The notes: generated from the sequence alone by a model not told the origin. A DNA stretch of 64,000 nucleotides from Armatimonadota bacterium (GCA_038248345.1 JBBRXO010000003.1:9361-73360), one strand, 5' to 3'; positions 221 to 57,927 are shown, counted from the first letter of the stretch. Translations and numbers: made by a program.

Positions 221-1000
221 ATGAGTGCAACAATCGCAGTTACCGGGAAGGGAGGGGTCGGAAAAACCACCATCTCTTCCCTTATTATTCAGTGGCTCGT
301 AGCCACCGGGAAGTCGCCAGTACTGGCGGTGGATGCGGATAGCAACGCCAATTTGAACGAGGCACTCGGTGTTGAATACCGGGCATCTGTAGGCGGAATT
401 CGCGAAGATGCACGTAAAGTAGTAAAAGAGTTGGCGGGCATCGCCAAGCAGGAGTTCCTTGACCTGCAGGTGCAAGCGGCGTTGGTAGAGGAAGAGGGTT
501 ACGACCTGATCGTGATGGGACGCCCGGAAGGTCCGGGTTGCTATTGTTTTGCCAACAATGTACTGCGCGAAGTTATACAGCGGCTGGCGAACAACTATAG
601 CTATATTGTCATTGATAATGAGGCCGGGCTTGAACATCTGTCGCGCCGCACCGTGCTATCAGTTGATTATCTGATCATCGTCTCGGACTGCTCGGTACGG
701 GGGGTACGTACCGCCGGTCGCATCGCCGCGCTGGCGCAGGAGATGGGCACACCTGTGAAAGAGCGCGGTTTGATTGTCAACCGGGTGCCGGGTGGTGTCT
801 TACCCGCTGGTGTGCAGGCAGAGGTGGCGGCCACCGGGTTGACATTGCTGGCGGCTGTTCCGCATGATGCCAGTGTCGCCGAGATGGATGGCGGCGGTTT
901 TGCAGTCGCTTCAATACCTGCCGATGCACCTGCCCGTACGGCCATTAATATTTTACTCACAAATCTGATGTCCCGCGAGCCGGTGATATCTACGACATAA
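221..1000 (+). CDS. cooC: CO dehydrogenase/ACS nickel-insertion ATPase (CooC/AcsF)
   Basis: GKGGVGKTT deviant Walker A, DADSNANL, GPGCYC metal site, DNEAGLEHLSRR; adjacent to cooS. Confidence 0.93.
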   Translation: MSATIAVTGKGGVGKTTISSLIIQWLVATGKSPVLAVDADSNANLNEALGVEYRASVGGIREDARKVVKELAGIAKQEFLDLQVQAALVEEEGYDLIVMGRPEGPGCYCFANNVLREVIQRLANNYSYIVIDNEAGLEHLSRRTVLSVDYLIIVSDCSVRGVRTAGRIAALAQEMGTPVKERGLIVNRVPGGVLPAGVQAEVAATGLTLLAAVPHDASVAEMDGGGFAVASIPADAPARTAINILLTNLMSREPVISTT

Positions 1001-1045: not shown

Positions 1046-2998
1046 ATGTCAAACGCGCTAGATCAAAGCCCAGCGGATACTCACTCAATCGATCAGGCTA
1101 TCAATACGATGATAGGCGTCGCCAAGAGTGAAGGTATCGCCACAGTATGGGATCGTTATAAGACCCAGATGCCCCAATGTAAATTCGGGCTCACCGGTGT
1201 TTGCTGTAAAATATGCCATATGGGGCCGTGCCGTATTACGCCGAAAGCCCCGTTAGGGATATGTGGCGCCAATGCTGATACCATTGCTGCCCGCAATTTG
1301 CTACGCGAGATCGCCGCCGGTACCGCGGCGCACTCCGATCATGGTCGCCACCTGGTGAAGACACTGCGCCAAGTAGCGCAAGGACGTGGTGGAACCTATA
1401 AGATCACTGATCCACATCGTCTGCATGAGGTTGCCAGCGCATTTGAGATTGAGACGGAAGGGCGCGATGACCTGGCGATTGCCGGGGATTTGGCGGACTT
1501 TTGCTTCCAGCAATTTGCTTGGTCAGAAGAGCCTAACTTCACCTTGCGGATGGCGCCGGAGAAACGCCAGGCGTTGTGGAAAAAGTTGGAGATTGAACCG
1601 CACGGGATTGATGCCGCAGTAGTGGAGTTGATGCACCGCACACACATGGGCGTCGACCACGATTACCGTCACCTTATCATGGGTGGGCTAAAATGCTCAA
1701 TCGCGGACGGTTGGGTAGGGTCATTGATCGCCACTGCGGTGTCAGACATTTTGTTCGGAACGCCGAAGCCGTTGCGGAGTACTGTTAATCTCGGTGTCCT
1801 CTGTGATGATAAAGTGAATATCATCGTCCATGGGCACGAGCCTACGCTCTCCGATATGCTCGCAGTTGCCGCTATGGATGATGAGCTACTTGCTTATGCT
1901 AAGTCGAAAGGCTCTGATGGCATAAATATCGCCGGTATTTGCTGTACCGCCAATGAGGTATTGATGCGGCACGGCCTGCCAATCGCCGGTAATTTCCTGC
2001 AACAGGAGTTGGCTATCATCACTGGCGCAGTCGAGATGATGATCGTAGATGTGCAATGTATCATGCCGTCGTTGCCGGAAGTGATGAAGTGTTTCCACAC
2101 CAAGCTGATTAGCACATCTGAGATAGCGCAGACAATTAACGCAGAACAGATTAACTTCGAGGTGGAGCATGGGTATGAGCAAGCTTGTGATTTGATTCGT
2201 ATGGCTATTGATAACTTCGCGAATCGCGATAATTCACGAGTGAATATCCCCAAGGAATCAATGGATCTGGTAGCAGGGTTTTCTAACGAGGCCATTTTCC
2301 AGATGCTCGGTGGGCGCTTCCGCAGCACTTTCCGCCCGCTCAATGATGCAATTATTGATGGGCGTGTCCGTGGCGTGGTAGGTATCGTCGGTTGCAACAA
2401 CCCGAAGGTACGTACCGACGAATCGCACGTAATACTCACTCGCGAGTTGATCAAAAATAACTACCTGATATTGGAGACCGGCTGTGCCGCTATCGCCTGT
2501 GCGAAGAATGGTCTGCTAACACCGGAGGCTGCATTAGAATTTGCTGGTGACTCACTGCGTGAAGTCTGCGAAGCGGTGGGAATACCACCGGTGTTGCATA
2601 TGGGTTCATGCGTGGACAACAGCCGTATTCTACTCGCCGCCACCAACGTCATGCTTGAAGGCGGGCTGGGGACAGATCTCTCTGATTTGCCGGTAGCTGG
2701 CGCCGCGCCCGAGATGATGTCGGAGAAGGCTGTCGCCATCGGGAGTTATTTCGTCGCTAGCGGCGTTTATGTGGTGTTGGGGCAGCCCCTCTATGTGGAA
2801 GGCAGTGAGAACGTCACCAAGCTCCTCACAGAAGAGATGGAAGATATCACTGGTGGTAAATTCGCCTGGGAGCCAGATCCGTTGAAGGCTGCAAAATTGA
2901 TTATGGATCACATCGAGAAGAAGCGTGATGCCCTGGGCATCAATGCCAAGAAGGAGCGAAAGTTGTACGACATGAAAGAGCGGAGGGAGCTTCAATGA
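1046..2998 (+). CDS. cooS: Anaerobic Ni-Fe carbon monoxide dehydrogenase catalytic subunit (CooS/AcsA)
   Basis: CKFGLTGVCCKICHMGPC..GICG B/D-cluster motif; C-cluster ligands in HGHEP, GICCT, DVQC, VGCNN, TGCA, GSCVDN; SEKA; RBS AGGAG upstream. Confidence 0.97.
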   Translation: MSNALDQSPADTHSIDQAINTMIGVAKSEGIATVWDRYKTQMPQCKFGLTGVCCKICHMGPCRITPKAPLGICGANADTIAARNLLREIAAGTAAHSDHGRHLVKTLRQVAQGRGGTYKITDPHRLHEVASAFEIETEGRDDLAIAGDLADFCFQQFAWSEEPNFTLRMAPEKRQALWKKLEIEPHGIDAAVVELMHRTHMGVDHDYRHLIMGGLKCSIADGWVGSLIATAVSDILFGTPKPLRSTVNLGVLCDDKVNIIVHGHEPTLSDMLAVAAMDDELLAYAKSKGSDGINIAGICCTANEVLMRHGLPIAGNFLQQELAIITGAVEMMIVDVQCIMPSLPEVMKCFHTKLISTSEIAQTINAEQINFEVEHGYEQACDLIRMAIDNFANRDNSRVNIPKESMDLVAGFSNEAIFQMLGGRFRSTFRPLNDAIIDGRVRGVVGIVGCNNPKVRTDESHVILTRELIKNNYLILETGCAAIACAKNGLLTPEAALEFAGDSLREVCEAVGIPPVLHMGSCVDNSRILLAATNVMLEGGLGTDLSDLPVAGAAPEMMSEKAVAIGSYFVASGVYVVLGQPLYVEGSENVTKLLTEEMEDITGGKFAWEPDPLKAAKLIMDHIEKKRDALGINAKKERKLYDMKERRELQ

Positions 2999-5900
2999 GT
3001 AAGATAATCGCCGCCTCCGCAATTAGAGGCGCTCATAAAATTGTCAATGACGCAGAAGCTATGGTTCGCAAGGCCATAGCAGAAAAGGGCGCTGACTGCG
3101 AGGTTGGATTCCCTGATACTACCTATTATCTACCGGTTATTTATTCTTTACTCGGTAAAAAAGTAGAGAAACTGGCTGACATGGAAGATATCCTGGCGGA
3201 ATGTCGCAATCTGTTGCCACCCATACCGCGCGACGGCATCTGGCTCCCGTATCTGGGCGGTACGCTTGACTCCGGCATGGCTACACTATTTGCCTTTGAG
3301 CTGATCGAGGCGTGCAAATACCTTATCGGTCCCAATCCGGTGAACGGCATATGGCTAGGAGCCGCGGGCGATGTCATCATCCGTGAGCGCGGTATTGAGT
3401 TCGTCGATGGCTCCGCCCCTGGCTTTGCCGCCGTGGTAGGAGCGGCACCCGATAAAGAGACCGCCGTGAAGATAGCCCATGAGCTGCAGGAGAAGAACCT
3501 CTATATCTTCCTGGCGGGCAATACCAATGGCGTCTCCTTCGCAGAGCAACTGGAAGAAGCGGGCGTGGAACTGGGCTGGGATACGCGCCTGGTGCCCTTT
3601 GGCAAAGATATATCCTCCGCTGTTTACGCGCTGGGGTTTGCCAATCGTGCAGCGCTCTCCTTCGGCGGTGTTAAGCCGGGTGACTATGCGGCAAACTTGA
3701 AGTACAACAAAAACCGCATCTTCGCTTTTGTTATGGCTCTCGGTGAAGTGACAGATGAAGACTATGCGGCGGCTGCTGGAGCTATCTCCTACGGTTTCCC
3801 CACCATCGCCGATACTGACATACCGGAGATTTTGCCCACGGGAATCTGCACGTACGAGCATGTGGTGGCAAATATCCCCCATGACCGTATTGTGGAGAAA
3901 TGCCTGGAAGTGCGTGGCTGTAAGATCAAAATCACCAAAGTACCCATCCCGGTATCATATGGCGCGGCTTTCGAAGGTGAGCGTATCCGCAAGGAGCAGA
4001 CCTTTGTAGAATTCGGCGGCAACAAGACGCACGGGTTTGAGTATGTAACCACTAAAGAAATAGCGGATGTAGAGGACGGCAAGATGACCGTCATCGGCCC
4101 TGATGTAGATGATGTGGAGGCAGGCAGCGCTCTGCCGCTAGCCATCTGGGTTGAGGTCGCCGGACGCAAAATGCAGCCGGACTTTGAGCCGATCCTGGAA
4201 CGTCAGATACATCACCTCATCAACGGTGCCGAAGGCATCTGGCATATGGGACAACGCGACATCATCTGGATGCGCATCAGCAAAGCCGCCAAGGAAAAAG
4301 GCTTCAGCATCAAACATTTCGGTGAGATCATTCACGCGAAGTTGCTCAATGAGTACCCGGCCATCGTGGACAAAGTGCAGGTAACGCTGGTTACCGATAA
4401 GGACGAAGTAGAGCGACGGTTGGACATTGCGCGGCGCAGCTATCGCGAACGCAACCTGCGCGTAGAGTCGATGACTGACGAGAGCGTTGACACCTTCTAT
4501 TCATGTCTGCTCTGCCAGAGTTTCGCCCCCAACCATGTCTGCGTCATCACGCCGGAGCGACTGGGTCTCTGCGGCGCTTACAACTGGTTAGACGGCAAGG
4601 CCGCCTATGAGATTGACCCCACCGGCCCCAATCAGCCGCTCATCAAAGGTGAATGTATCGATCCGGTGCGCGGGCAGTGGAAAGATATCAACGAGTACGT
4701 CTACTCTAACTCTAAGCAGACCATTGAGCGTTTTAACGCTTATTCAATGCTGGAAGACCCGATGACCAGTTGTGGCTGTTTTGAGGCTATCGTCGCCATG
4801 CTGCCGGAGTGCAATGGGGTGATGATCGTCAACCGTGAGTTCCCCGGCGATACTCCGGCGGGAATGCGATTCTCTACACTGGCGGGGAGTACGGGGGGCG
4901 GGCAGCAGACTCCCGGTTTCATCGGCGTCGGCAAAGCCTATATTGTCAGTAAGAAATTCATCTCGGCGGAAGGCGGGCATAAGCGCATCGTCTGGATGCC
5001 GCGTGAGCTGAAAGAAGCGCTGAAAGAAGACCTGGAGTTGATCGGCAAACGTCTCGGTATTGAGAACTATTGTGATCTTATCGCAGATGAGACCGTCGGG
5101 TCAGATACCGCCTCTGTCAACGCCTATATGCAGAAGGTCAATCACCCGGCGCTGACCATGTGGGATGTAACCACCCCTTCACCGGAATGCGCTGCCATTG
5201 ACGCTGCGCGCGGCGTTGTAGCTGCTACCGCTCCAATTGAGGCGGATGCTCCGGTGGTAACAGCAAATGTAGAAAAAGCAGCAGCGCCAGTCGTTGCCGT
5301 GGCACCGACAGCAGTTGCTGTGGCCGCCCCGGCGCCAGTGGTAGCTGCAAATCAAGTAGATGGTCTGTCCTATGTCATATCAGTACTTGATAAAGTGCGT
5401 GCCACGGGCGTTGCACCGGTTGCTGGTACCAATATGGATCAGCAGATGGCCGCCTTGCAGATGTCCACCGCGGTGAATCTGCTGACAGCTGGCGCCAATA
5501 TGCTGCTAATGTACAGTGGCGCACTCGGCCAGGTACCGGTGGCTCCTGTTGCGTTGCCTATTGCTCACACGGCAGTAACGGAAGTAGATGTGGCAGTGGC
5601 TCCGACGGTTCACCCGATAGCTGCCACATGGGATACCCCGATACTGGTTAAAGAGAAACTGGTTACCTCGGCGAAAATTGCCGTCCCCGCTACCTTTAAG
5701 ATACCGGGCGAAAGCGCTAGCTTGTCAGTTCGTGAGGTCACCCTTGGTGGTAGTGGTACGCGCACCTCGTCGCTCACCCTCGGTGGAGCCAGCGTATTGC
5801 CCTTCCGCCATTACGAGGGTAACATTGGGCGCACTCCGGCAATTGCTATGGAGGTATTTGACCGTCTGCCACGCAACTACCCACAGTCATTGCGGGACGC

Positions 5901-6648
5901 CTACGGAGATATGCTCACCGATGCGCCGAAGATGGCGAAGTACTGCGTCGAGGAGCTAGGCGCGCAGGCAATCAGCATTCGTTTGGACAGCACCCACCCG
6001 GACAATGAGGACACCTCTCCGGCGGCCGCGTGCGACTTTGTACAGGGCGTGCTTAGTGCCGTCGGTGTGCCGATTATTGTCACCGGCCCCAGCCATTACG
6101 AGAAGAACAATGCCGTGATGAAACAGGTAGCAAGCACCTTCACTGGCGAGAACTTGCTGCTGAACTGGGTGGAGACGGATAACTACAAAACCATCGCCGC
6201 CGCCGCCATGGCATATAACCATTGTATTGTGACGCAGACCCCGATTGACGTGAATATGGCTAAACAGTTGAATATTCTCGTCACTAATATGGGGCTAGCT
6301 CCCGAAAAAATCATCATCGACGCGCTGACCGGCGCGCTGGGGTACGGTCTGGAGTACACTTACTCGGTGATGGAGCGTATCCGTAGCTCGGTCTTCACCG
6401 GAGACAGTATGCTGGCATTGCCGATGTTAGGCACGCCCGGCTACGAGATCGCCAAAACAAAAGAAAGCAAAGCGCCGCAAAGCTCCTTCAAAAATTGGGG
6501 CCCAGAGAGCGAGCGGGGCGCATTACTGGAGATCGCAACTGCGATGAGTTTGCTCAATGCTGGCGCTGATCTGCTGGTGATGTATCACCCCATCGCGGCA
6601 ACAACCGTGAAGAAAAAAATTGCCGAGATGACTCGGTTAGAGGACTAA
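2995..6648 (+). CDS. acsB: Fusion of bacterial acetyl-CoA synthase (AcsB) and corrinoid Fe-S protein small subunit (AcsD) via an Ala/Val/Pro-rich linker
   Basis: aa ~1-720 are AcsB (CLLCQSFAPNHVC, GLCG, TSCGCFE, ending HPALTM). aa ~900-1217 are AcsD (VREVTLG, TPIDVNMAKQLN, GYGLEYTYSVMERIR, AGADLLVMYHP). One uninterrupted frame; ATGA overlap with the cooS stop. Confidence 0.93.
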   Translation: MSKIIAASAIRGAHKIVNDAEAMVRKAIAEKGADCEVGFPDTTYYLPVIYSLLGKKVEKLADMEDILAECRNLLPPIPRDGIWLPYLGGTLDSGMATLFAFELIEACKYLIGPNPVNGIWLGAAGDVIIRERGIEFVDGSAPGFAAVVGAAPDKETAVKIAHELQEKNLYIFLAGNTNGVSFAEQLEEAGVELGWDTRLVPFGKDISSAVYALGFANRAALSFGGVKPGDYAANLKYNKNRIFAFVMALGEVTDEDYAAAAGAISYGFPTIADTDIPEILPTGICTYEHVVANIPHDRIVEKCLEVRGCKIKITKVPIPVSYGAAFEGERIRKEQTFVEFGGNKTHGFEYVTTKEIADVEDGKMTVIGPDVDDVEAGSALPLAIWVEVAGRKMQPDFEPILERQIHHLINGAEGIWHMGQRDIIWMRISKAAKEKGFSIKHFGEIIHAKLLNEYPAIVDKVQVTLVTDKDEVERRLDIARRSYRERNLRVESMTDESVDTFYSCLLCQSFAPNHVCVITPERLGLCGAYNWLDGKAAYEIDPTGPNQPLIKGECIDPVRGQWKDINEYVYSNSKQTIERFNAYSMLEDPMTSCGCFEAIVAMLPECNGVMIVNREFPGDTPAGMRFSTLAGSTGGGQQTPGFIGVGKAYIVSKKFISAEGGHKRIVWMPRELKEALKEDLELIGKRLGIENYCDLIADETVGSDTASVNAYMQKVNHPALTMWDVTTPSPECAAIDAARGVVAATAPIEADAPVVTANVEKAAAPVVAVAPTAVAVAAPAPVVAANQVDGLSYVISVLDKVRATGVAPVAGTNMDQQMAALQMSTAVNLLTAGANMLLMYSGALGQVPVAPVALPIAHTAVTEVDVAVAPTVHPIAATWDTPILVKEKLVTSAKIAVPATFKIPGESASLSVREVTLGGSGTRTSSLTLGGASVLPFRHYEGNIGRTPAIAMEVFDRLPRNYPQSLRDAYGDMLTDAPKMAKYCVEELGAQAISIRLDSTHPDNEDTSPAAACDFVQGVLSAVGVPIIVTGPSHYEKNNAVMKQVASTFTGENLLLNWVETDNYKTIAAAAMAYNHCIVTQTPIDVNMAKQLNILVTNMGLAPEKIIIDALTGALGYGLEYTYSVMERIRSSVFTGDSMLALPMLGTPGYEIAKTKESKAPQSSFKNWGPESERGALLEIATAMSLLNAGADLLVMYHPIAATTVKKKIAEMTRLED

Positions 6649-6661
6649 AGGGAGCACGAAG

Positions 6662-8005
6662 ATGGCATTAACTGGTCTGGATATCTTTAAAATATTGCCC
6701 AAAACCAACTGTACTGAATGTGGCGTGCCCACTTGTATGGCATTTGCCATGAAGTTGGCCGCCAAAAGTGTCGAGCTCTCCGCTTGTCCGTATGCCTCGG
6801 AAGAGGCAAAGACAAAGATCGGCGCGGCGAGTAAGCCCCCGATCAGGTTGGTCAAACTCGGGCCAACTGATCGTGAGGTGTTACTGGGGAACGAAACCGT
6901 GATGTTTCGTCACGAGAAGACCTTCGTTCATCCCCCAGCCTTCGCAGTAGCCTTCTCCGATGAGCAATCAGCGGGCGACCTGGCGCATCTCACCGCTACT
7001 GTGCGTGAATATTGCCTGGAGCGCGTGGGTGAGGAGCTTACTCTCGATCTGGTACTGATTGAAAACACCAGCGAAGAGGTAGAGCCGTTCATAGCCGCTA
7101 TCCGCGCAGTGGCGGCCAGCGCCGGACGCGGGGTGATCCTGAAGAGTAGCAACGTGGCGGCTCTGGAAGCTGGTGCGCAATTGCTGGAAGGTCAGCGTCC
7201 CTTATTACATGCGGCGACCACCGAAAATGTGGATGCCGTGGCAGCTATTGCGCTGAAATACAAATGCGCGGTGGTAGCGCAGGCCGCGACGCTGGATGAA
7301 CTGGCGGCGCTGACAAAGAAGCTGGCCGCGCTGGGTGTGCAAGATATCGTGCTCGATATCCCGGCGGATAATATCGCGGCTACGCTGCAGAATAATACCC
7401 TTGCGCGTAAGGCGGCATTGAAGACCGCTTTTGAACCGATGGGCTACCCGGTCATCAACTTCGTTGTAGAGGAAGACCTGCCCAGTCTGGTGGCAGATGC
7501 TTCGACTTTGATCTGTAAATACGCGTCGATCCTGGTGATAGATACACTTTCCTATCAGGCGCTATTGCCGTTGATGATGTTACGGCAGAATATCTATACC
7601 GACCCGCAGAAACCGATCCAAGTAGAGCCGAAGATCTACCCCATCGGGGAGCCGGATGATAATTCACCGGTACTGGTTACTACCAACTTCTCGCTGACAT
7701 ACTTCATCGTTTCGGGAGAGATTGAGAACTCAGGTATATCCGCGCACCTCGTTATTGTCGAATGCGAAGGGATGAGCGTGCTTACCGCCTGGGCAGCCGG
7801 GAAGTTCTCCGGCGAGAAGATCGCGCAGTTCATCAAATCCTCCGGCCTGGAACAGCAGGTTAAAACCCGCCGCCTCATCATCCCCGGCTATGTCGCGCAG
7901 ATCAGCGGCGACCTGGAAGAGGGGCTGAAAGGCTGGGAGATAGTCGTCGGACCGCAAGAAGCATCCGACCTGGGGCCGTTTATGAAGCTACAGGTGGGTA
8001 AGTAA
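6662..8005 (+). CDS. acsC: Corrinoid iron-sulfur protein large (gamma) subunit
   Basis: LPKTNCTECGVPTCMAFA..CPY, ETVMFRHEKTF, RQNIYTDPQKP, TTNFSLTYF, SVLTAWAAGKF. Confidence 0.97.
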   Translation: MALTGLDIFKILPKTNCTECGVPTCMAFAMKLAAKSVELSACPYASEEAKTKIGAASKPPIRLVKLGPTDREVLLGNETVMFRHEKTFVHPPAFAVAFSDEQSAGDLAHLTATVREYCLERVGEELTLDLVLIENTSEEVEPFIAAIRAVAASAGRGVILKSSNVAALEAGAQLLEGQRPLLHAATTENVDAVAAIALKYKCAVVAQAATLDELAALTKKLAALGVQDIVLDIPADNIAATLQNNTLARKAALKTAFEPMGYPVINFVVEEDLPSLVADASTLICKYASILVIDTLSYQALLPLMMLRQNIYTDPQKPIQVEPKIYPIGEPDDNSPVLVTTNFSLTYFIVSGEIENSGISAHLVIVECEGMSVLTAWAAGKFSGEKIAQFIKSSGLEQQVKTRRLIIPGYVAQISGDLEEGLKGWEIVVGPQEASDLGPFMKLQVGK

Positions 8006-8054: not shown

Positions 8055-9977
8055 ATGCCTATAGTTCGCTTTCTACCCGGCAATACCACTGTAGAAGTCC
8101 CCGTTGGCACTCTCATTCATGAGGCGGCTATCAAGGCGGGGATAGAAGAGTTACATCTTCCATGTGGTGGTAAAGGTACATGCGGGCGGTGCCTGGTGGA
8201 GATCGTTGAGGGCACGACAGATGGGGTGGGACACTCGCATTTGGCCGATGCTTTGGCTGGCGGGCGGCTAGTGATGGCGTGCCAGACGAAGGTGCGCGAG
8301 GATATAACCGTTGGCATACGCCCCAAGCATGATGACACTATGCGGGTGGTGGGTGACAGTCATTTGCTCATCGGCGATGACCTGTTGCCGGATATTGATG
8401 ATCTCTCACCGCTCTACCGCTTTGTGCAATTGACGGTACCCGAGGCATCAATTGAAGAGCATTATAGTGACTGGCAACGCATCGTACGGCTGTTAGGCGA
8501 CTGGGATCGCACATTGCCAACTTGCCCCCTGAACGTTACAACCGATATTACAGTATTACGTCAGCTAGCCGAGGTATTGCGAGCACAGGATGGCCGTGTG
8601 ACAGTGACTATCCGCGAGGAAGATGCCGGTATACACGTTCTAGCGGTGGAAGCCGGGCATGTGGAAAAGAAAGCCTATGGGCTGGCAATCGACATCGGCA
8701 CAACCACCGTGGCAGTGCAACTGGTTGACCTGGTTGCGGGCCGTGTAATAGCGAGTCGTACTTCTTATAACGCACAGATTCGCCGTGGTGGTGATATCAT
8801 CAGTCGTATCGACTACGCTCGCACACCAGAGCGGCAAGAGGAATTACGTGGGCTGGTGCTGGAGACATTGCGTGAATTGATCGCAGATACTCTCGCCTGT
8901 ACGCGTACTGATTCGCAAGCGGTGTATGCAGCTTTCATCGCTGGCAACACTACCATGATCCACCTGCTACTCGCCCTGCCTCCGCGATACATTCGCGAGT
9001 CACCATACGTACCCACCGTCAACACCGTGCCAACGCTTACCGCCGCCGAAGTGGGACTACCGATCAACCCTACCGCAATAGTATCCTGCGCGCCGGGGGT
9101 GGGTAGTTATGTGGGCGGCGATATTACTGCTGGATTGCTCTGCACCGAGTTGACGACTAACAGCGAAGAGGTGTTTCTCTTTTTGGATATCGGCACCAAT
9201 GGTGAGATTGTGCTGGGTAATGCCGATTGGTTGGTCACCTGCGCCTGCTCTGCCGGGCCAGCTTTTGAAGGTTCTGGTATCAAGTGCGGTATGCGCGCAA
9301 CTGACGGCGCTATTGAATACTTCGCTATAGCACCTGGAATGCAGGAGATTAGCTACGATGTTATCGGTAATGGTAAACCAGCGGGTATCTGCGGTTCTGG
9401 CCTGATTTCGCTACTGGGCGAGTTACTATTGCGCGGTGTGGTTGACCAAATGGGGCGTTTCAATATGGAGCTGCCCACCGACAGGCTTATAAAAACACCT
9501 AACGGTAATGCCTTCGTGCTGGAGTTTGCCGCTGAGACGCAAGCTGGTGCTGACCTTTTCATTACCGAGGCAGATATTGAAAACCTGATGCGCACGAAAG
9601 CGGCGATTTATGCTGCTTGCGCGCTCATACTCGATAATGTCGGATTGGCTTGGAGCGCAATATCGCATGTCTATATCGCAGGTGGTTTTGGGCGCTATAT
9701 CCAGATAGATGACGCTATCATGATCGGGCTGTTGCCTGACTTGGAGGCCGAACGCTTCCATTATATCGGCAACTCCGCCCTCACTGGCGCTTATATCGCT
9801 TTGTTGACCGCCAAGGGCCGGCAGCAACTAGCCACCACCGCTGCGCGCATGACCTACATCGATTTAAGTAGCGATCATCGCTACATGGACAGCTACCTAG
9901 GCGCACTCTTCCTGCCACATACAGATATGACGCAATTCCCCACCGTGGCGGAGAAGATGATGGCGGCGCGGGCATAA
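8055..9977 (+). CDS. acsV: Reductive activator of corrinoid protein (RACo/AcsV; 2Fe-2S plus ASKHA ATPase)
   Basis: CGGKGTCGRC..ACQ 2Fe-2S motif; DIGTTT, DIGTNGE, SAGPAFEG, GICGSG, AGGFG. Confidence 0.92.
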   Translation: MPIVRFLPGNTTVEVPVGTLIHEAAIKAGIEELHLPCGGKGTCGRCLVEIVEGTTDGVGHSHLADALAGGRLVMACQTKVREDITVGIRPKHDDTMRVVGDSHLLIGDDLLPDIDDLSPLYRFVQLTVPEASIEEHYSDWQRIVRLLGDWDRTLPTCPLNVTTDITVLRQLAEVLRAQDGRVTVTIREEDAGIHVLAVEAGHVEKKAYGLAIDIGTTTVAVQLVDLVAGRVIASRTSYNAQIRRGGDIISRIDYARTPERQEELRGLVLETLRELIADTLACTRTDSQAVYAAFIAGNTTMIHLLLALPPRYIRESPYVPTVNTVPTLTAAEVGLPINPTAIVSCAPGVGSYVGGDITAGLLCTELTTNSEEVFLFLDIGTNGEIVLGNADWLVTCACSAGPAFEGSGIKCGMRATDGAIEYFAIAPGMQEISYDVIGNGKPAGICGSGLISLLGELLLRGVVDQMGRFNMELPTDRLIKTPNGNAFVLEFAAETQAGADLFITEADIENLMRTKAAIYAACALILDNVGLAWSAISHVYIAGGFGRYIQIDDAIMIGLLPDLEAERFHYIGNSALTGAYIALLTAKGRQQLATTAARMTYIDLSSDHRYMDSYLGALFLPHTDMTQFPTVAEKMMAARA

Positions 9978-9998: not shown

Positions 9999-10089
9999 TG
10001 TAGGGGCACAAGGCTTGTGCCCAAGTCTTAACCATACGATTTGTATAATAGAAAACTCGGAAAGAGGGCACATGCCATGTGCCCCTACA
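9999..10089. repeat. REPIN-like doublet, GTAG-type REP (copy 1)
   Basis: TGTAGGGGCACAAGGCTTGTGCCC ... GGGCACATGCCATGTGCCCCTACA, two small hairpins in inverted orientation; near-identical ends recur at 57830-57927. Confidence 0.85.
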
Positions 10090-10117
10090 ATATTTAACGG
10101 ATACAGGAGGACTAATT

Positions 10118-11014
10118 ATGAAATCACTTCTCGAACGCCTTGCCGCCGGTGAGATCCTTATCTCAGACGGGGCCATGGGCACTTTCCTTCAGGCGAAGGG
10201 CCTGCAACCCGGCGAATCTCCTGAGGCGTGGTGTTGCTCGCATCCGGACGCTGTGAAGAGTATTGCCGAGGCTTACATTGCTGCTGGCTCGGATATTGTT
10301 GAGACCGATTCCTTCGGCGGCACTACTTTCAAGCAGCGCGAATTCGGTCTGGCAGATAAGGTTGATGAGTTCAACACTGCCTCTGCCAAGCTAGCCAAAG
10401 AAGCCATGGGCGACAAAGGCTATGTGGCGGCATCGGTAGGCCCCACCGGGCAAATTGTCGAGGATGAGGGCGGCGATGTCACCGAAGAAGAGCTTTATGA
10501 AGCCTTCAAACAGCAAGTAATCGCGCTGGCCGCTGGCGGTGCCGATGCGGTCTGTATTGAAACCATGTCATCCGTTACTGAGGCAGTGCAAGCCATCAAA
10601 GCCAGCAAAGATAACACTGACCTGCTGGTGATTGCTACCTTCACCTTCGAGCCAGGTGCGCACGGCTTCCGCACAATGATGGGCGTCACCCCTTCGCGCG
10701 CCGCCGGGGAATCGGTGGCCGCCGGCGCCGACATCATTGGCGCTAATTGTGGCAATGGCATCGCTAATATGATTGAGATCACCCGCGAATTGCGCGCCGC
10801 CGCCCCTAATACCCCGATCCTTATCCACGCGAACGCTGGTATGCCGGTATTTGAAGACGGCAATACCGTATTCAAAGAGACTCCTGCCGACATGGCAGCC
10901 CGCGTAAAGGAATTGGTCGAAGCTGGAGCCAATATAATTGGTGGTTGCTGTGGCACCACGCCTGCGCATATAGCAGCGATGGCAGAAGTGGCACGGGGAT
11001 GTGGAAAAAGCTAA
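10118..11014 (+). CDS. Stand-alone homocysteine S-methyltransferase domain (MetH N-terminal domain-like)
   Basis: DGAMGT, GANCG and GGCCGTTP Zn ligands, NAGMP. Start moved to ATG 10118 behind RBS AGGAGG. No pterin- or B12-binding domains. Confidence 0.9.
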   Translation: MKSLLERLAAGEILISDGAMGTFLQAKGLQPGESPEAWCCSHPDAVKSIAEAYIAAGSDIVETDSFGGTTFKQREFGLADKVDEFNTASAKLAKEAMGDKGYVAASVGPTGQIVEDEGGDVTEEELYEAFKQQVIALAAGGADAVCIETMSSVTEAVQAIKASKDNTDLLVIATFTFEPGAHGFRTMMGVTPSRAAGESVAAGADIIGANCGNGIANMIEITRELRAAAPNTPILIHANAGMPVFEDGNTVFKETPADMAARVKELVEAGANIIGGCCGTTPAHIAAMAEVARGCGKS

Positions 11015-12356: not shown

Positions 12357-14971
12357 CTACGACCACTCAATGACGAAATAGCAGTTATCGGCGGCATTGT
12401 GGCGATACCAGGTGTTCTGGGTTTCTTCATCAGGATAACTGATATGGGCGTAGGTTTCGGTGCTTTCGACAGCAGCAGTCAGATTATTCCAGGTAACCGG
12501 CGCGCCATTGATCCATTGCCAGTGTTCATCACGATAGAAGAGTCCCAGATGATAATTACTTATTAAACTGGAATCACATACACTGGAGAGATAACGAAAC
12601 AACGCCTGGGTGGATCGCTGCGAAGTTGGACATGCGAGATGGCCACCCTGGCTTTGGCAGAAGGCTTCCGCGTCGTGCCAGGTCATCTGGTGCGGGATGG
12701 CGATAAATCGGAAACCATCACATTCAGTTACCCAGCGAGTGAGGTCTACAGTAGAGGTAGACGCTGATTGAGAAGGCATCCAAGCGCGTAACGCCTGATG
12801 GATGGGATCAAGCACGGAGAGAACATAACCGACACGATGACTATTAATCTGGCGTAACGTAGGGATATCAGTGAGATCAGGTAGTGCCTATTGATGTATG
12901 ATATTGAACTCCAATTGGCGTAAGGGTAATTGGCGCAGTACCGTGGCATTCGATGCTGTGAGCTGAACACCATCCAGTAAAAGTACCGCCAGCGGTTTAC
13001 CAGCTAATGGAGTAATATCCTCAATGAGAGTCTGGCGGCAGTCCAGAATAGTGAGGGGACTACTGGCGAGCGGGGATAGATCACGTATCGGATTCTTTCC
13101 GCACTCCAACCGGTGCAGTGGTAAACCCTGAAGCGGAGTTAGATCGGTAACATAATTCACCGTGAGCATAAGCTGCAATAATGAAGATCCGCTAAGTGGA
13201 GTCAGGTCGGTGATCTTGTTAAAGCGACAATCCAGCAATCTCAAGTGTATCCCTTGTAAAGGTGATAAGGTAGTGATGCCATTTGAATGGCATTGCAGAC
13301 TCTCCAGAGGTGTGCCGACCAATGGGGAGAGGTCAGTTATCTGATTATTATTAAACTCGCATTCCGTTAATGGCATCCCTCGTAGCGGAGATATATCAGT
13401 AATCAGGTTGGATCCGCAATCTAGAGTTCGTAATGGCATGCCCATTAAAGGTGAGAGGTCATTGATGCTATTACCTTGGCAGTTCAATAAGGTTAAAGAC
13501 ATGCCAGCGAGTGGTGTGAGCGATGTAATGCCAGTTTTACGAATATTCAGACGCTGTAACGACATACTGGCTATAGCGTTCAATATCGTTTGCTTCTCCT
13601 TGGCTGTCGAATTGATAAATAGCTGTCGGAGGCGATCCACGACTAAATGTGGAGTTTCGTCTGTACGATTCAAGGCCAATAGTTGTGTCAACGTCGTCAT
13701 TACTCCGGCGATATCATGTCGCGTCAGACGAAAAAGCGCTAGCTCGCGCAATGCCTGCTGAGCAAAGGGATGATCGACGCTAATCCCGATCGTTTCCAGG
13801 GCTGCATCTTTAGCGTCGCCATGATGATCTGGCATGGCCAGGGCGGCGAGATACGCTGCCTCATTGCGCAAGGCAGGGTCAGTGATCTCCTTACCAGTAC
13901 GTACAAACCACTTCCAGGCGAGTTCAGCTGCGCCCTGCGACATCAGCACGCGCCCGGGTTCCAATATCGATACATACATGGGGGAACGACGTGAATGAAT
14001 GCGTAGCTGGCGGATATCCGCGCTACCCTCATTAAAATGGCGTCCTAGCGCCACGTAGCGACAGGTATCGCCGGTGAGGGAGAAAGGGGCATGGTATTCC
14101 ATGATGCGTTGGCCATCTATTTCAGCATAAAAGGTATCCCGTTCACGCCAGAGTGACACACTGAATTGCGATGCTTCATGGTTTAGCATGATGTTGCACA
14201 CAGACAACACTTCCCAAGTACCATGTTGCACTGTTTCAAAGGTGATATGGTCATAATTCTGCAGGTGTAAGCGATAGCCAGTAAGGAGATCACCAGAGAC
14301 GGCGAGGTAGATATTTATACCATCGTGCAGGCGATTATCAATAACAACATCCAGGCAGGCCTCTTCTGATAGGTCACCTTCCCAACGCAGATGAGTCCAC
14401 CAGAAGGCCGGGAGCAGGCGGAGCATCCCGTCTTCCAGCACGATACGCTCAGGAGCAAGGTGTTGTGGCGCCTCCAATTCACTCGCGAAGTCCTGATACC
14501 AGTAGACGTTTAAGCGTGCATCGAGTTCTTGAGTCTGCGAAAAATCAGCCTCGAGTACAGTATTCCAGTGTACCTGAAAAAGCTCGCTTTGCTGCACAGT
14601 ACCCATCCCAATATTCGCAGAATCAGGCGCTGGTGGTAGTTCCTTCCGCTTTTGCGAGGGAGTTACCCCGAAGTATTTGTGGAAGAGGCGAGAAAAATAG
14701 AAACTGTCGGCATAGCCAACTGCTTCGGCGACAGCAACTATCGTCAATTCATGATTTAGCAGCAGTGTGGCGGCTTTTTCCATGCGAAGTGAAAGCAGAT
14801 AGTGAATGGGACTCATGCCGAAAAATCGCTTGAACCTTTTGCAAAAGTAATTAGGGGTGATGCAAAGAGAAGGGCGAGATCATCTAATGATATCGCCTCG
14901 ACGTAGTGTTCTTCCATGTAGGATTTTACACCGATGTATGTATATGGAATCTGAGCCTGATCATTTTGCAT
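12357..14971 (-). pseudogene. Disrupted hybrid regulator: AraC HTH, ConA/LamG-like domain, TPR-like helices, LRR, C-type lectin
   Basis: The upstream frame MQNDQ..YMEEHYVEAISLDDLA joins CITPNYFCKRFKRFFGMSPIHYL only through a 1-nt frameshift (~14863-14880). ORF 12888-14816 ends at a TAG that is in frame with the lectin ORF 12357-12815 (MTWHDAEAFCQSQGGHLAC, WQWING). Confidence 0.8.
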
Positions 14972-44794: not shown

Positions 44795-46213
44795 ATGTCA
44801 CGTTTAACAACTATCTTGCTACTACTACTGGTGTTACCTTGTGCGCTATTGGCGGCGCCAGCAGTATCTCCGATGATGCCGGGTGCCTTCTACGATGGTT
44901 CCTGCACGATGGCGCCGCTCTTTGTCGTGAGTGTTTGGATGGGTGCCTATGCTGATTATAATATCGACACCGGGGCAATAACGCTCTATTCCCCTGAGCA
45001 CAAGGTGAGCATGAAAATTGGCAGCGCTAACGCTATCTGTGATGGAAAGGCGCAGGTGTTCCCGTCGGCAGTCATGCTAAAAGACAACATTATATTCGCC
45101 CCGGCGGAGGCTATCGCTTCCGCCTTGGGGGGCGAACTGGTATTGCCCGGTTCTCCCAATTCGCTGACAATTAGCAATCCGAAAACAAAAGAAAAGTTGC
45201 GCCTGTTCCTCGCCGGGCGTGCTGCCCAGGCACAAACATTGTTCGCCGCAGTAATGGCCGACCGTGCCCTTGATGTACAAATTACCTTGAATGTAAATCC
45301 AGAACTGGCACTGGCGACTGACATCGAGAATAACACGTTGCTCCATGTTGCGGCCGTCAATAACAACCGGAATTTACCCGATCCACTATTGAAGAGTGAT
45401 TGTACCAGCAAACTGCCCGAGGTAATGACGAATTCTCTTACAATCGCTAAATTGTTGCTGGAGAAGGGAGTGAGCCCTAATGCGCATAATCGTGCTGGGG
45501 TCACCCCTTTTGCAGCTGCAGCGGGTAAAGGATTGACGCCATTCCATCTATTATTGGCGGAGAATGGCGCAGATGTAAATACTACCTTTGCCGGCGGTTT
45601 CACTCAGTTGATGTATGCCGTCATGCAGGATAACCTGCCTATAGTGCAGTACTTGCTGGCACATGGCGCAGCCCCTGATCTAAAAAACAAAGATGATTTC
45701 TATGCGTTGCATTATGCGTTATCTCCTGATAGCACAGATATGAAGATTGTTAACGCGCTGCTTGATGCGGCGGCTGATCCCAATATTGTTGACGGGAATG
45801 GCTGGACAGCTCTCGATCGCGCCGCCTGGTTTGGTCTGGAGGATGTAGTGGTGGTATTGCTGGCGCATAAGGCAGACCCCAACTCCTCCATGCGTCTGGA
45901 AAAATTGACCCCCCTTCATTCCGCCATAATTGTCCGCGGCGATACTAGCAGGACACTGAAAGGTGATGGCCTGACGATGGCGCGTGAACTGGTGGCTAAG
46001 GACGCGAAAGTGAATGTAAAAAATTACCAGGGTGACACACCGTTACACTTCGCGACACGACAGGGATGGTCGGCAGCAGTAGATTTTCTGCTCGCTAGCG
46101 GAGCCGATGTCAACGCCCGCAATGAGAATAATGAAACCCCATTGCGGATTGCTGTGGAATGGAATTACCTGGCTATTGCGGATGTGCTGGCTAAAAATGG
46201 CGCAAAACAGTAA
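44795..46213 (+). CDS. Secreted ankyrin-repeat protein with N-terminal copper amine oxidase-like (stalk) domain
   Basis: Signal peptide; MAPLFVV..MGA..YN..VSMKIGS..APAEAIASALG; repeated TPLH/GADVN units. Confidence 0.82.
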   Translation: MSRLTTILLLLLVLPCALLAAPAVSPMMPGAFYDGSCTMAPLFVVSVWMGAYADYNIDTGAITLYSPEHKVSMKIGSANAICDGKAQVFPSAVMLKDNIIFAPAEAIASALGGELVLPGSPNSLTISNPKTKEKLRLFLAGRAAQAQTLFAAVMADRALDVQITLNVNPELALATDIENNTLLHVAAVNNNRNLPDPLLKSDCTSKLPEVMTNSLTIAKLLLEKGVSPNAHNRAGVTPFAAAAGKGLTPFHLLLAENGADVNTTFAGGFTQLMYAVMQDNLPIVQYLLAHGAAPDLKNKDDFYALHYALSPDSTDMKIVNALLDAAADPNIVDGNGWTALDRAAWFGLEDVVVVLLAHKADPNSSMRLEKLTPLHSAIIVRGDTSRTLKGDGLTMARELVAKDAKVNVKNYQGDTPLHFATRQGWSAAVDFLLASGADVNARNENNETPLRIAVEWNYLAIADVLAKNGAKQ

Positions 46214-50771: not shown

Positions 50772-50812
50772 GCCTGAGTTTGCTCTTTAGCTAAGCGAAT
50801 TCGGGCTTTTTT
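50772..50812 (+). terminator. Intrinsic terminator/attenuator immediately upstream of hydC
   Basis: GCCTGAGTTTGCT/AGCGAATTCGGGC 13-bp stem with 3 G-U pairs plus T6, ending ~35 nt before the hydC ATG. Confidence 0.7.
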
Positions 50813-50846
50813 GCGTCTGCATATCATAGACGAACGAGGAATCAAA

Positions 50847-51347
50847 ATGGAGAAAATCGAAACAACCTGTACCTGCGGCGAAGAGACTGATGAAGCGAAG
50901 CGCGCGCGGATCATCGAGATCATCGATGAATTTAAGGGACGTGATGGCAGCCTGATCCAGATACTGCATCTGGTGCAGGGGGTGTATGGATACCTGCCGT
51001 TGGAGATTCAGCAGTTGATCGCCGAGAGGATGGATATCCCCCTTTCGGAGGTCTACGGCGTAACGACTTTCTACTCATTCTTTTCCACGCAACCACGGGG
51101 GAAGAACACCATAAGCGTTTGTATGGGCACCGCCTGCTATGTGCGGGGGAGCGCCAAACTGCTGAAAAGACTGTCAGAAATGCTGGGGGTTGAGGTAGGT
51201 TCTACCACCGAAGACCGCAAGTATACGTTGGAGGTCATGCGCTGTATGGGTGCCTGTGGGTTGGCCCCGGCGGTGATGGTGAACGGCGAAGTTATTCCAC
51301 AAGTTAATCCAGAAAAATTGAATCGTATCCTTGATAAGTGCGATTAG
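50847..51347 (+). CDS. hydC: [FeFe]-hydrogenase gamma subunit (NuoE-like 2Fe-2S)
   Basis: VCMGTAC..RCMGACGLAP; RBS GAGGA. Confidence 0.9.
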   Translation: MEKIETTCTCGEETDEAKRARIIEIIDEFKGRDGSLIQILHLVQGVYGYLPLEIQQLIAERMDIPLSEVYGVTTFYSFFSTQPRGKNTISVCMGTACYVRGSAKLLKRLSEMLGVEVGSTTEDRKYTLEVMRCMGACGLAPAVMVNGEVIPQVNPEKLNRILDKCD

Positions 51348-51358
51348 GAGAAAAGGTA

Positions 51359-54300
51359 ATGGCAAATATCCCTGAAAAAGTTATCTCCAGAGCTGATCTG
51401 GAGTCAATTAAAACACAATACGATGCGCAGCAAAAAGATATCCGCTTCCATCTGCTGGTATGTGCTGGCGCTGGCTGCGTCTCTTCCGGCTGTTATGCCG
51501 TGCGTGATGCGCTGGTTGCCGCGCTGAAAGATGCGGGGCTCACCGAGCAGGTATCGCTACAGGAGACTGGCTGCATCGGCACCTGCGACCTGGGGCCATC
51601 GCTGGTGATACAGCCGGACGATGTCTTCTACACGAAGCTAAAACCGGAAGATATGGCACGGATTGTACAACAGCACCTGCAGGATGGACAGGTTATCGAA
51701 CGCCTCTGCTACTGGGACAAGGACAAAGAGAAGCACGTCACCCAGTTGTCGGAGATTGAATTCTTCAAACGGCAACTGCGGTTAGTGACCGGGCGTTGCG
51801 GCAATCTGCCGTATCAGTCGGTCGAGGCGTATATCTCCTCGGATGGCTACCTGGCGCTGGCGAAAGCCCTCACCGATATGTCGCGCATGGACGTCATCGA
51901 CGAGATGAAACGCTCTGGCCTGCGGGGCCGCGGCGGCGGCGGTTTCCCCGCCGGCATCAAGTGGCTGGCGGGCTATAACGCGCCGGGCAGCGAGAAGTAC
52001 ATCGTCTGCAATGGCGACGAGGGCGACCCTGGCGCATTCATGGATCGCTCGCTGATGGAGGGTGATCCTCACGCCGTCATCGAGGGGATGTTAATCGCCG
52101 GTTATGCTATCGGCGCTAATCATGGCTTTATCTATGTACGAGCCGAGTACCCGCTGGCTATTAACCGCATGGAAGTCGCGCTGCGCCAGGCACGGGAATT
52201 AGGTCTCCTCGGTGACCACGTGATGGGCACCGACTTCGCCTTTGATATTGAGATTCGCATCGGAGCAGGAGCCTTTGTCTGCGGTGAAGAGACCGCGCTG
52301 ATGGATTCCATCGAGGGCAAACGCGGCGAGCCACGACAGAAGCCGCCATTCCCCTTCGAGGCGGGTGTTTTCGGCAAGCCGACGATTATCAATAATGTGG
52401 AGACGCTGGCCAATGTTCCGCTGATCATCTACCGGGGTGCGGACTGGTTCACGCAATACGGCACTGAAGGCAGCAAGGGGACGAAAGTCTTCGCGCTGGC
52501 CGGTGATGTGCAGAACACCGGCATCGTCGAAGTACCGCTGGGCATTCCGTTGGGAGAGATCATCTTCGATATCGGCGGCGGCATCCAGAAGGGCAAGCTC
52601 TTCAAAGCCGCGCAGACCGGCGGCCCCTCGGGCGGTTGTCTCACGCGCAAGCATCTGAATACTCCGGTGGATTACGATTCGCTGGTGAAGCTGGGCACTA
52701 TCATGGGCTCCGGCGGTCTCATCGTCATGGATGAGGACACCTGTATGGTGGATGTCGCCCGGTTCTTCCTCGATTTCGTGCAGGATGAATCCTGCGGTAA
52801 GTGTGTCCCCTGCCGTATCGGCACCAAGCGTATGCTGGAGATTCTGGAGCGTATCACTAAAGGCGAGGGCAAGGAAGGCGATATCGAGTTGCTGGAAGAG
52901 CTGGCAATGACTTGCAAAGAGACGGCCACCTGTGGGTTAGGACAGACGGCAGGTAACCCGGTGTTAAGTACCATCCGCCACTTCCGCGAGGAATATGAAG
53001 AGCATATCAAGTATCATTATTGTCGCGCTGGTGTCTGCGCTGACTTGATGCAGTCGCCATGTCAGAATGCTTGTCCGGCTGGAGTTAACATCCCCGGCTA
53101 TGTGGCGCTTATCGCCGCTGGCAGGCCGCGGGATGCCTACAATCTAGTACGCAAGGAGAATCCATTCCCCGCGATTTGTGGGCGCGTTTGTACTCACCCT
53201 TGCGAGAGCAAATGCCGTCGCTCGCAACTGGATGAACCGCTGGCCATCTGCGACCTGAAGCGCTATGCGGCGGATTATGTCTTTTACAACGAAGAGCCGT
53301 ATATGGATCTCGTCTTCCCACAAAAACCGGAGTCGGTGGGGATAATTGGTGCTGGCCCCAGCGGTTTAACCTGCGCCTACTACCTGGCGCGGTTGGGCTA
53401 TAATGTCACTGTTTATGAAGCTGAGAGTATCGCTGGTGGTATGCTGGCGTATGGAATCCCGGAATATCGCCTGCCCAATGCGATCCTCGCAAAAGAGATA
53501 AAATTATTGGAGCAAGTTGGTGTAAATATTAAAACTGGGGTTGAAGTGGGCAAAGATATACTGTTTGCTGAATTGAAAGAGAAGCACAATGCAATTTATA
53601 TCGCTATCGGCACGCAGTTCCCCAATAAGATTAACATCCCGGGCGAGGAGCTGCCGGGCGTCTATCATGGCCTGAATTTCCTGCGTGATGTTGCGCTGGG
53701 ACGCCCGACCACCGTGGGCAAAAACGTGATAGTAATCGGAGGTGGTAGTACCGCCTTTGATACCGCGCGCACGGCGCTACGCATGGGAGCGGAGAAAGTC
53801 ACTATTATCTATCGGCGGCAAATCGAAGATATGCCGGCGGATGTTCGGGAAATTGATGAAGCTATTGAAGAAGGTATCGAGATCGTTCCGCTCACTGCGC
53901 CGCTCGAGTTCGTCGGTCATGAGAGGGTCGAAGGTGTCCGATGTGCGCAGATGGAATTGCGTGGTTATGATGATGCCGGACGCCGCAAGCCGGTGCAAGT
54001 GAAGGGCAATGAATTCGTCCTCTCGGCGGACATGGTGATCCCGGCAGTCAGCCAACATTCGGACTTACCTTTCATCGACAAGGATGAAGTGGAACTGACA
54101 CAATGGGGCACGTTGATAACAGATCCGGAGACGATGATGACCTCCATGCGTGGTGTCTTCGCTGGTGGCGATGCGGTGCGCGGCCCCGATGTGGTAATCC
54201 AGGCGATTGCCGACGGTAAAAAGACGGCGATCAACATCGACCTTTTCCTCGGTGGCGCCGGGGTACTCAATACCGGCGAGGCTATTGAAATCCCAGCGGC

Positions 54301-54457: not shown

Positions 54458-54475
54458 TCTGAAGGTGAGGAAAGA

Positions 54476-57786: not shown

Positions 57787-57829
57787 GATAGTCTCCTCCT
57801 TATTAACGTGGGCTATGCACACAACCAAT

Positions 57830-57927
57830 TGTAGGGGCACAAGGCTTGTGCCCACGTCGTAACCACACCTTCAATCGGTCATATCTCCCATACCCCGTAT
57901 AAAGGGCAAGTGCCATGTGCCCCTACA
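57830..57927. repeat. REPIN-like doublet, GTAG-type REP (copy 2)
   Basis: TGTAGGGGCACAAGGCTTGTGCCC ... GGGCAAGTGCCATGTGCCCCTACA. Confidence 0.85.

Follow-up and report, generated by a model that had tools for sequence, protein, structure and literature searches.

A 64,000-nucleotide stretch of DNA from an Armatimonadota bacterium (GCA_038248345.1, JBBRXO010000003.1:9361-73360), analyzed on one strand and referred to here as the window, contains a single open reading frame (ORF) that encodes both acetyl-CoA synthase (ACS; AcsB) and the small subunit of the corrinoid iron-sulfur protein (CFeSP; AcsD). The ORF, which we call acsBD, lies at 2995..6648 on the plus strand and extends from ATG to TAA over 1217 amino acids with no internal stops, as had been reported in a first-pass annotation of the sequence. 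The joining of acsB and acsD is a true gene fusion and not an artefact. Nor is the fusion peculiar to this window: it is common, and it is conserved in six or more groups at the level of phyla, among them Armatimonadota, Acidobacteriota, Methylomirabilota, Fibrobacterota, Planctomycetota, and Desulfovibrionaceae. We consider it probable that ACS and the CFeSP small subunit are made as one chain of approximately 130 kDa, resulting in a permanent tether between ACS and CFeSP.

Both enzymes are complete within this frame, in agreement with the first-pass annotation, which had described a full bacterial ACS of about 720 amino acids and a full AcsD. The AcsB part (residues 1-724; 2995..5166, plus strand) is made up of domains A1, A2, and A3. 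It scored 1073.3 bits with the AcsB equivalog model NF040764 (NCBIfam CODH_ACS_al_bet; cut-off 800), residues 10-724 aligning with profile positions 1-703 of 705, and Pfam placed CODH_A_N at residues 22-110, CdhC at 318-472, and ACS_CODH_B_C at 483-723. The N-terminal A1 domain, which is the part of AcsB that binds carbon monoxide dehydrogenase (CODH), is present based on the CODH_A_N match and on the start of the equivalog match at residue 10. Residues 504-526 and 593-595 contain a cysteine pattern of the form CxxC-x8-C-x9-C followed by C-G-C (C504, C507, C516, C526, and C593-G594-C595), which was invariant in 104 of 104 aligned fused homologues and which we take to represent the metal ligands of the A-cluster, as in Moorella ACS.

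The AcsD part (residues 881-1217; 5635..6645, plus strand) comprises the N-terminal strand region and the TIM barrel of the CFeSP small subunit. It matched NF003376 (acetyl-CoA decarbonylase/synthase complex subunit delta) at 356.9 bits against a cut-off of 280, with residues 902-1213 aligned to positions 4-312 of 313, and the Pfam CdhD domain (PF03599) was found at 914-1151. The narrower model NF040759 (WLP_AcsD) gave 250 bits, below its cut-off of 430, which leaves the AcsD part in the broader delta-subunit family and outside the narrow WLP_AcsD group. Solved small subunits (4djd_D, 2h9a_B, 4c1n_B, and 9fzy_E) align end to end with AcsD from about residue 901, the Protein Data Bank matches having E=2.5e-78 to 2.3e-56. 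When residues 725-1217 were modeled with AlphaFold2, the predicted local-distance difference test score (pLDDT) was mostly >90 in the AcsD barrel.

One explanation for such a frame is that a missed stop or a frameshift has merged two neighboring genes. The source is a draft genome (2.98 Mb in 185 contigs, 95.66% complete), which lends this some plausibility. However, the same frame recurs in independent assemblies by the hundred, two of them closed chromosomes (5.2 and 5.3 Mb), and the nearest unfused relatives have cooC between acsB and acsD, so that simple read-through would be insufficient to join the two. Public contigs are also identical over the region: contigs from two runs of one study matched 4900-6100 with 0 differences, a single contig spanning 4980-6100. 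These assembled contigs show no stop in the linker, where the first-pass annotation had proposed mapping reads, although the two runs possibly represent the source sample itself and hence give weak support. Taken with the other assemblies, these data make an assembly artefact scarcely conceivable.

The sequence was also inspected for a second site of translation initiation that would allow AcsD to be made separately. A Shine-Dalgarno-like motif precedes each of acsBD and its operon neighbors acsA, acsC, and acsV, but no in-frame ATG, GTG, or TTG preceded by such a motif was found at residues 769-915, and a GTG at residue 754 is preceded only by the 4-base GAGG. The sequence is therefore without sign of a separately initiated AcsD, and the earlier statement that there is no obvious internal ribosome-binding site still holds. 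Across the genome as a whole, CdhD-family matches number just two. One is AcsC and the other is the AcsD half of acsBD, which leaves the latter as the sole AcsD-type gene in this 95.66%-complete genome.

The distribution of the fusion was examined by a protein database search with residues 725-1217 as query, considering only proteins of 669-2130 amino acids at E <= 0.001 (8000 candidates scored). This search, a domain-architecture check of the kind that the first-pass annotation had called for, gave 547 matches; among the matches listed, 120 of 120 carry ACS_CODH_B_C together with CdhD, and 105 of these 120 carry all four Pfam domains. Source names of the fused matches include Armatimonadota, Bryobacteraceae, Korobacteraceae, and Terracidiphilus, and some of the matches sit on contigs of 2.8-8.2 Mb. 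In a set of 80 loci from species-representative genomes, the end of AcsB and the start of AcsD are in one frame at 49. The remaining loci are accounted for by a change of frame in the linker (7 loci), a contig end just upstream of AcsD (3), separate acsB and acsD genes (10), and AcsD with no AcsB within the fetched stretch (11). Judged by their titles, the fused loci derive from Armatimonadota, Acidobacteriota (Bryobacteraceae, Solibacteraceae, Korobacteraceae, and Acidobacteriaceae), Methylomirabilales, Fibrobacterota/Chitinivibrionales, Phycisphaerae, and Desulfovibrionaceae.

Within the Armatimonadota, AcsB was detected in 73 of the 401 genomes searched, the source genome included. In 18 of these 73, a complete AcsB is found in a frame of 1129-1351 amino acids, with 73-100% identity to the AcsB of the window; 36 have frames of 726-788 amino acids and 44-63% identity, and the other 19 gave only fragmentary AcsB matches. 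Both the long- and the short-frame kinds of AcsB are present in the source genome's own family. At one locus (G094:C602:407-4231) the AcsB match is split in two, with about 1.6 kb between the piece for residues 1-518 and that for residues 504-722. Each piece is reported in an open frame of 1284 amino acids, and the locus may represent an insertion inside AcsB.

Phylogenetic analysis of AcsB is consistent with a common origin for most of the fused genes. In a tree of 69 complete AcsB domains (IQ-TREE 'quick', LG+G4), all 42 of the 42 fused rows, which include two relabeled as frameshifted and one as contig-cut, fell on one side of a branch with a Shimodaira-Hasegawa-like approximate likelihood ratio test (SH-aLRT) value of 100, a single label change being needed. 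Within this group the Desulfovibrionaceae/Phycisphaerae branch first, followed by the Fibrobacterota, and the Acidobacteriota form a clade nested among the Armatimonadota. This nesting, and the presence of fused lineages of several phyla in one group, indicate that the gene has moved between phyla. The gene order in the nearest unfused loci is acsA-acsB-cooC-acsD-acsC, and the fusion therefore involved removal of cooC from between acsB and acsD.

When two distant cluster representatives were added to the AcsB tree, one of them (P0127) joined the Desulfovibrionaceae fused group. The other (P0144), a fused protein of 1225 amino acids, was placed among unfused AcsB, the starred branches of the tree forcing two changes, and its AcsD half paired with the unfused AcsD P0142 (SH-aLRT 99). 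This placement suggests that P0144 represents a second, independent AcsB-AcsD fusion, with the caveat that the P0144 branch is long (0.69).

The two enzymes are connected by a linker of about 176 amino acids in the window protein; across 104 aligned fused sequences its length ranges from 143 to 299 amino acids, with a median of 183.5. From the 104-sequence alignment and an alignment of 26 loci, in which identity was calculated as mean identity to the window's residue, the linker region can be partitioned into four segments. A conserved tail following A3 (residues 717-746; 5143..5232, plus strand) contains the HPAL..W/D..PSPE motif region and has an identity of 0.59, an Ala/Pro/Val/Thr fraction of 0.60, and a gap fraction of 0.09. 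It is followed by a first variable stretch (residues 747-785; 5233..5349, plus strand; identity 0.31, Ala/Pro/Val/Thr 0.85, gaps 0.35), a conserved two-helix module of 60 amino acids (residues 786-845; 5350..5529, plus strand; identity 0.59, Ala/Pro/Val/Thr 0.35, gaps 0.02), and a second variable stretch (residues 846-880; 5530..5634, plus strand; identity 0.29, Ala/Pro/Val/Thr 0.71, gaps 0.31). For comparison, the AcsD segment has an identity of 0.70. Both variable stretches had pLDDT values <50 in a full-length AlphaFold2 model, and means of 45-60 over 10-residue blocks in the model of residues 725-1217 (48-60 for the first stretch and 45-60 for the second). The first-pass annotation had described an Ala/Val/Pro-rich linker of about 180 amino acids; the length and the composition of the two variable stretches conform to that description, but between them lies the conserved module, which it does not cover.

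By sequence comparison, this module derives from the C-terminal helices of AcsD itself, of which it is an abbreviated copy. Alignment of the module with AcsD within the window protein by BLASTP gave E=4e-6, and comparison of a 20-sequence module alignment with a 25-sequence AcsD alignment by hhalign gave a probability of 95.2% (E=2.5e-8). The AcsD counterpart consists of the helix after the seventh strand together with the helix and strand before the last helix, approximately 27 loop residues being missing from the module. The 20 module sequences are from Armatimonadota, Acidobacteriota, one Methylomirabilales, and uncultured records. No BLASTP alignment was obtained between the module and AcsC. 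Homology of the module to the N-terminal extensions of archaeal-type CdhD was also considered and was rejected on the basis of an hhalign probability of 0.1% (16 extensions); phmmer alignments of archaeal-type proteins that run into the linker involve low-complexity sequence and were not relied upon.

Since the module is clearly derived from AcsD, it could be a functionless relic of a partial acsD duplication that accompanied the fusion event, and the basal fused lineages (Desulfovibrionaceae and Phycisphaerae), like P0144, carry different amphipathic helices in its place. Such a relic would not be expected, however, to retain, over 20 sequences, 14 columns that are invariant and another 6 that are nearly so, nor an identity of 0.59 when the flanking stretches are at 0.29-0.31. 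The Fibrobacterota linkers contain a divergent version of the module, and some helix is kept at the module position in every fused lineage examined. We therefore regard a relic as very unlikely. A search for the module in proteins of 30-668 amino acids gave 15 matches, 13 with an AcsD domain and two that are short pieces. Four of these matches were inspected (P0274, P0278, P0282, and P0283); all begin inside conserved elements and look like cut or frameshifted fused genes rather than stand-alone forms. A 376-amino acid AcsD (P0132) has a Met start and an N-terminal helical extension like the linker helix of Phycisphaerae/Desulfovibrionaceae. It may be a stand-alone AcsD with an extension; its C-terminus looks truncated.

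The ability of the module to associate with itself was assessed by complex prediction, using four copies of the module and its own alignment. The self-association score was 0.42, compared to 0.02 for the best of three controls. In calibration, 20 of 30 proteins with structures solved as pairs of one chain attained the tool's mark, as did 1 of 23 with single-chain structures; the calibration set used two copies, and our own alignment was supplied here, so these counts apply only roughly to the four-copy job. The runs share at least 67% of contacts, with a partner pLDDT of at least 62. Among the lowest-error contacts are the self-pairs 10-10, 13-13, 44-44, and 45-45, along with the invariant residues L13, A41, L44, L45, G48, and L52, and the self-pair contacts fit a two-fold symmetric four-helix bundle. 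The complex model thus supports self-association of the module but does not demonstrate it.

An alternative role for the module would be to dock on another partner, such as AcsC, AcsE, RACo, CODH, or the AcsD-binding surface of ACS. As a copy of two AcsD helices it could present the same surface as AcsD, and in one version of this idea it could act as a mimic of the AcsD surface that holds a place on the partner while the barrel is elsewhere. The moderate pLDDT of the module in both monomer models would also be expected of a segment that folds upon a partner absent from the model. On the other hand, the module has no similarity to AcsC, and self-association, the sole interaction modeled, reached the mark with clean controls. 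Docking on another partner is accordingly a possibility that we hold to be doubtful. With the module as a dimerization element, the dimer might cross-link two ACS-CFeSP arms to give a scaffolded CODH/ACS-CFeSP supercomplex, a counterpart of the archaeal acetyl-CoA decarbonylase/synthase (ACDS) reached independently by fusion of acsB to acsD and re-use of a fragment of the AcsD barrel as the oligomerization element. We advance this last proposal tentatively, as one that may well not hold.

A mechanism can be proposed in which the fusion keeps the methyl donor next to the subunit that uses it. The small subunit of C. autoethanogenum CFeSP is reported to dock, in the complex, on domains A1 and A3 of ACS (bioRxiv 10.1101/2024.08.05.606187), and therefore the fusion joins exactly the two chains that are in contact. 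AcsB would be held on CODH (AcsA) through its A1 domain, and AcsD would bind AcsC, the corrinoid carrier, giving an AcsA-AcsBD-AcsC assembly in which the methyl donor is permanently attached to the subunit with the A-cluster. Each of the two disordered Ala/Pro/Val-rich stretches is about 40 residues long, which should suffice for CFeSP to swing away; CFeSP would then leave for methylation by AcsE or for re-reduction by a RACo-type activator, and return to its dock on ACS. Being tethered, CFeSP would be at a higher local concentration at the A-cluster and in a fixed 1:1 stoichiometry, and the module would most likely dimerize symmetrically as a four-helix bundle and so couple a pair of arms, either within a complex or between complexes. 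We infer in this that the chain is uncleaved, that it functions as a swinging arm, and that it dimerizes. A covalently tethered CODH-ACS-CFeSP megacomplex had been envisaged in the first-pass annotation; the complete halves, the sole AcsD, and the flanking acsA and acsC genes agree with this, and its assembly in the cell is what we infer from them.

The fused gene could also encode a polyprotein, made as one chain and then cut in the linker. The sole purpose of the fusion would then be to match the output of AcsB to that of AcsD, and the mature enzymes would be separate, as they are in model acetogens. Disorder is predicted for both low-complexity stretches, which makes them protease-accessible. 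Translational coupling is, however, already present in the operon without fusion, in the form of an ATGA overlap and Shine-Dalgarno motifs, and a strongly conserved module is hard to explain in a linker that is discarded. Furthermore, no conserved cleavage motif is apparent in the 26-locus linker alignment. Cleavage of this type consequently appears improbable.

Several observations weigh against a permanently tethered and dimerizing ACS-CFeSP. A covalent tether could hinder the visits of CFeSP to AcsE and RACo. Among public runs, no RNA runs covering 4900-6100 were found. The full-length AlphaFold2 model had a predicted template modeling score (pTM) of 0.43 and gave the arrangement of the domains without confidence, and the module helices, predicted at residues 790-803 and 814-840, had a pLDDT of only 57-75 in both AlphaFold2 models. 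Docking of the module onto its own chain was likewise considered, and neither of the two monomer models predicted it with high confidence. In the complex prediction, the large interface came from just two of the four module copies, and the job was unlike those on which the tool was calibrated. When AcsD was analyzed alone, the base of the main fused group was poorly resolved and there was no single fused clade; that tree required 9 label changes, a number that is inflated since 6 of the 'unfused' labels represent contig-cut or frameshifted fused genes, and our statement of a single origin is taken from the AcsB tree only. Lastly, at the seven frame-changed loci (L025, L027, L059, L061, L062, L075, and L080), AcsB and AcsD are in different frames that overlap within the linker. 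Most of the seven are metagenome-assembled genomes, and their isolate names suggest one large survey. We have assumed that the change of frame is due to sequencing error; alternatively, it may be a real fission of the fused gene.

Comparison with known systems places the fused protein among the bacterial CODH/ACS enzymes. It and its neighbors belong to the same protein families as the systems of Moorella thermoacetica, Carboxydothermus hydrogenoformans, and Clostridium autoethanogenum, having in common with them AcsB with A1-A2-A3 and the A-cluster motif, the AcsD TIM barrel, AcsA, AcsC, a RACo-type activator, and AcsE. Unlike bacterial CODH/ACS with separate CFeSP, AcsB and AcsD are here one polypeptide, with an AcsD-derived module in a linker that is covered by no solved chain. 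The arrangement also differs from that of the nearest unfused loci in that cooC is not located between acsB and acsD.

The closest functional parallel is to archaeal ACDS (CdhABCDE), in which ACS and the corrinoid protein are in one assembly, as is predicted for the fused protein. Archaeal ACDS is described as being scaffolded by disordered termini and an oligomerizing helix in the CdhD N-terminal region (bioRxiv 10.64898/2026.07.07.736967). The same preprint states that bacterial AcsD does not conserve this oligomerizing region and that the bacterial corrinoid protein (CoFeSP) is not known to oligomerize. The archaeal scaffolding parallels the disordered linker of the fused protein with its possibly self-associating helix module. 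The archaeal link is non-covalent, however, and the one described here is covalent; archaeal CdhC is without A1, whereas A1 is kept in AcsB; and the CODH is of the CooS/AcsA type rather than the archaeal CdhA type, the AcsA product scoring only 87.2 bits with the archaeal cdhA model TIGR00314 (cut-off 781.3). The likeness to ACDS made from bacterial parts, as proposed in the first-pass annotation, therefore stands as an analogy, with a bacterial CODH and a retained A1, but does not extend to homology, given the result for the module and the CdhD extensions. By this analogy, the fused clade would provide bacteria with an equivalent of the archaeal ACDS scaffolding that is not homologous to it.

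Other AcsD fusions are found among the cluster representatives, including proteins in which methylenetetrahydrofolate reductase (MTHFR), with or without tetratricopeptide repeats (TPR), precedes AcsD (MTHFR-(TPR)-AcsD; P0147 and P0154), and one in which AcsD is joined to CODH (P0152, Prismane). In the other AcsD fusions inspected, P0144 among them, no AcsD-derived module was found, and partners or linkers differ. Additional AcsD architectures (among P0133-P0135, P0160, P0163, and P0173) have a C-terminal extension of 200-450 amino acids without a Pfam match.

Swinging-arm multienzymes offer a further point of comparison. In the 2-oxo acid dehydrogenases, with the lipoyl arms of E2, and in MetH, a carrier domain on a flexible linker visits several active sites. 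Linkers in these systems, which comprise E2 lipoyl arms and modular cobalamin enzymes such as MetH, are Ala/Pro-rich or otherwise mobile. These proteins belong to unrelated families, and, unlike in them, the tethered unit here is the subunit without the cofactor, the corrinoid being on the separate AcsC chain.

Full-text searches of the literature brought up no account of AcsB fused to AcsD, though mention in subscription papers or in the supplements of preprints is possible. The first-pass annotation had held that the novelty of the fusion would fall if it were both common and described; it is common, and in those searches it was not described. Public records name the fused proteins only 'alpha/beta subunit' or 'acetyl-CoA synthase', and therefore pathway surveys that rely on finding acsD as a gene of its own would take the carbonyl branch to be incomplete. 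This would be the case for many Acidobacteriota and Armatimonadota from peat, soil, and sediment.

Work on the enzymes of the Wood-Ljungdahl pathway is currently concerned with how CFeSP reaches acetyl-CoA synthase, docks there, and departs. In bacteria their encounter is described as transient; in archaea the two are described as parts of a scaffolded supercomplex. A natural and widespread bacterial form with the partners covalently joined would give structural and kinetic studies an ACS-CFeSP complex whose stoichiometry is already set. The fusion also appears contrary to the statement that bacterial AcsD is without a conserved N-terminal disordered region bearing an oligomerizing element. 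Selection has favored tethering on at least one occasion, and probably on two. If the module does cross-link two arms into a supercomplex, the repeated fusion of AcsB with AcsD, in the main clade and in P0144, would point to selection of a general kind for holding the methyl donor close to the A-cluster.

The genes that flank acsBD on the plus strand encode other components of the pathway. The operon begins with a cooC-like nickel-insertion ATPase (221..1000; Pfam AAA_31/CbiA P-loop), which has the same position in related fused loci and whose name is taken from its position and family rather than from a curated equivalog. It is followed by acsA, encoding the catalytic subunit of Ni-CODH (1046..2998; TIGR01702, 708 bits against a cut-off of 478), the stop of which overlaps the start of acsBD in the ATGA already mentioned. 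The partner large subunit is encoded beside acsBD, by acsC (6662..8005; NF003195, 562 bits against a cut-off of 306, with Pfam FeS and CdhD), and binds corrinoid and a [4Fe-4S] cluster. Next is acsV, for a RACo-type reductive activator of the corrinoid protein (8055..9977; Pfam RACo_C_ter, Raco_middle, RACo_linker, and Fer2), which with NF040756 gave 606 bits, under the cut-off of 800. The methyltransferase AcsE is encoded on a different contig of the same genome.

The last gene of the operon (10079..11014, plus strand) encodes a stand-alone homocysteine S-methyltransferase domain of 311 amino acids (PF02574, E=1.7e-69) and is kept after acsV in most loci of the fused clade. Its identity is 68-87% to the Armatimonadota and Acidobacteriota loci and 54-55% to the Phycisphaerae loci. 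As an idea only, the enzyme could draw methyl groups from the methylated corrinoid protein for the formation of methionine.

Elsewhere in the window, a HydABC-like [FeFe]-hydrogenase cluster is located at 50811-56287 (plus strand). Its middle gene (51338-54457; 1039 amino acids) combines a NuoF-like module with Fer4_20 and a Pyr_redox_2 (GltD/NfnB-like) module. An AraC-type helix-turn-helix domain is fused to leucine-rich repeats at 12888-14816 (minus strand), and two ankyrin-repeat proteins, one of which has a Cu_amine_oxidN1 domain, are encoded at 44795-46213 (plus strand) and 56446-57855 (minus strand).

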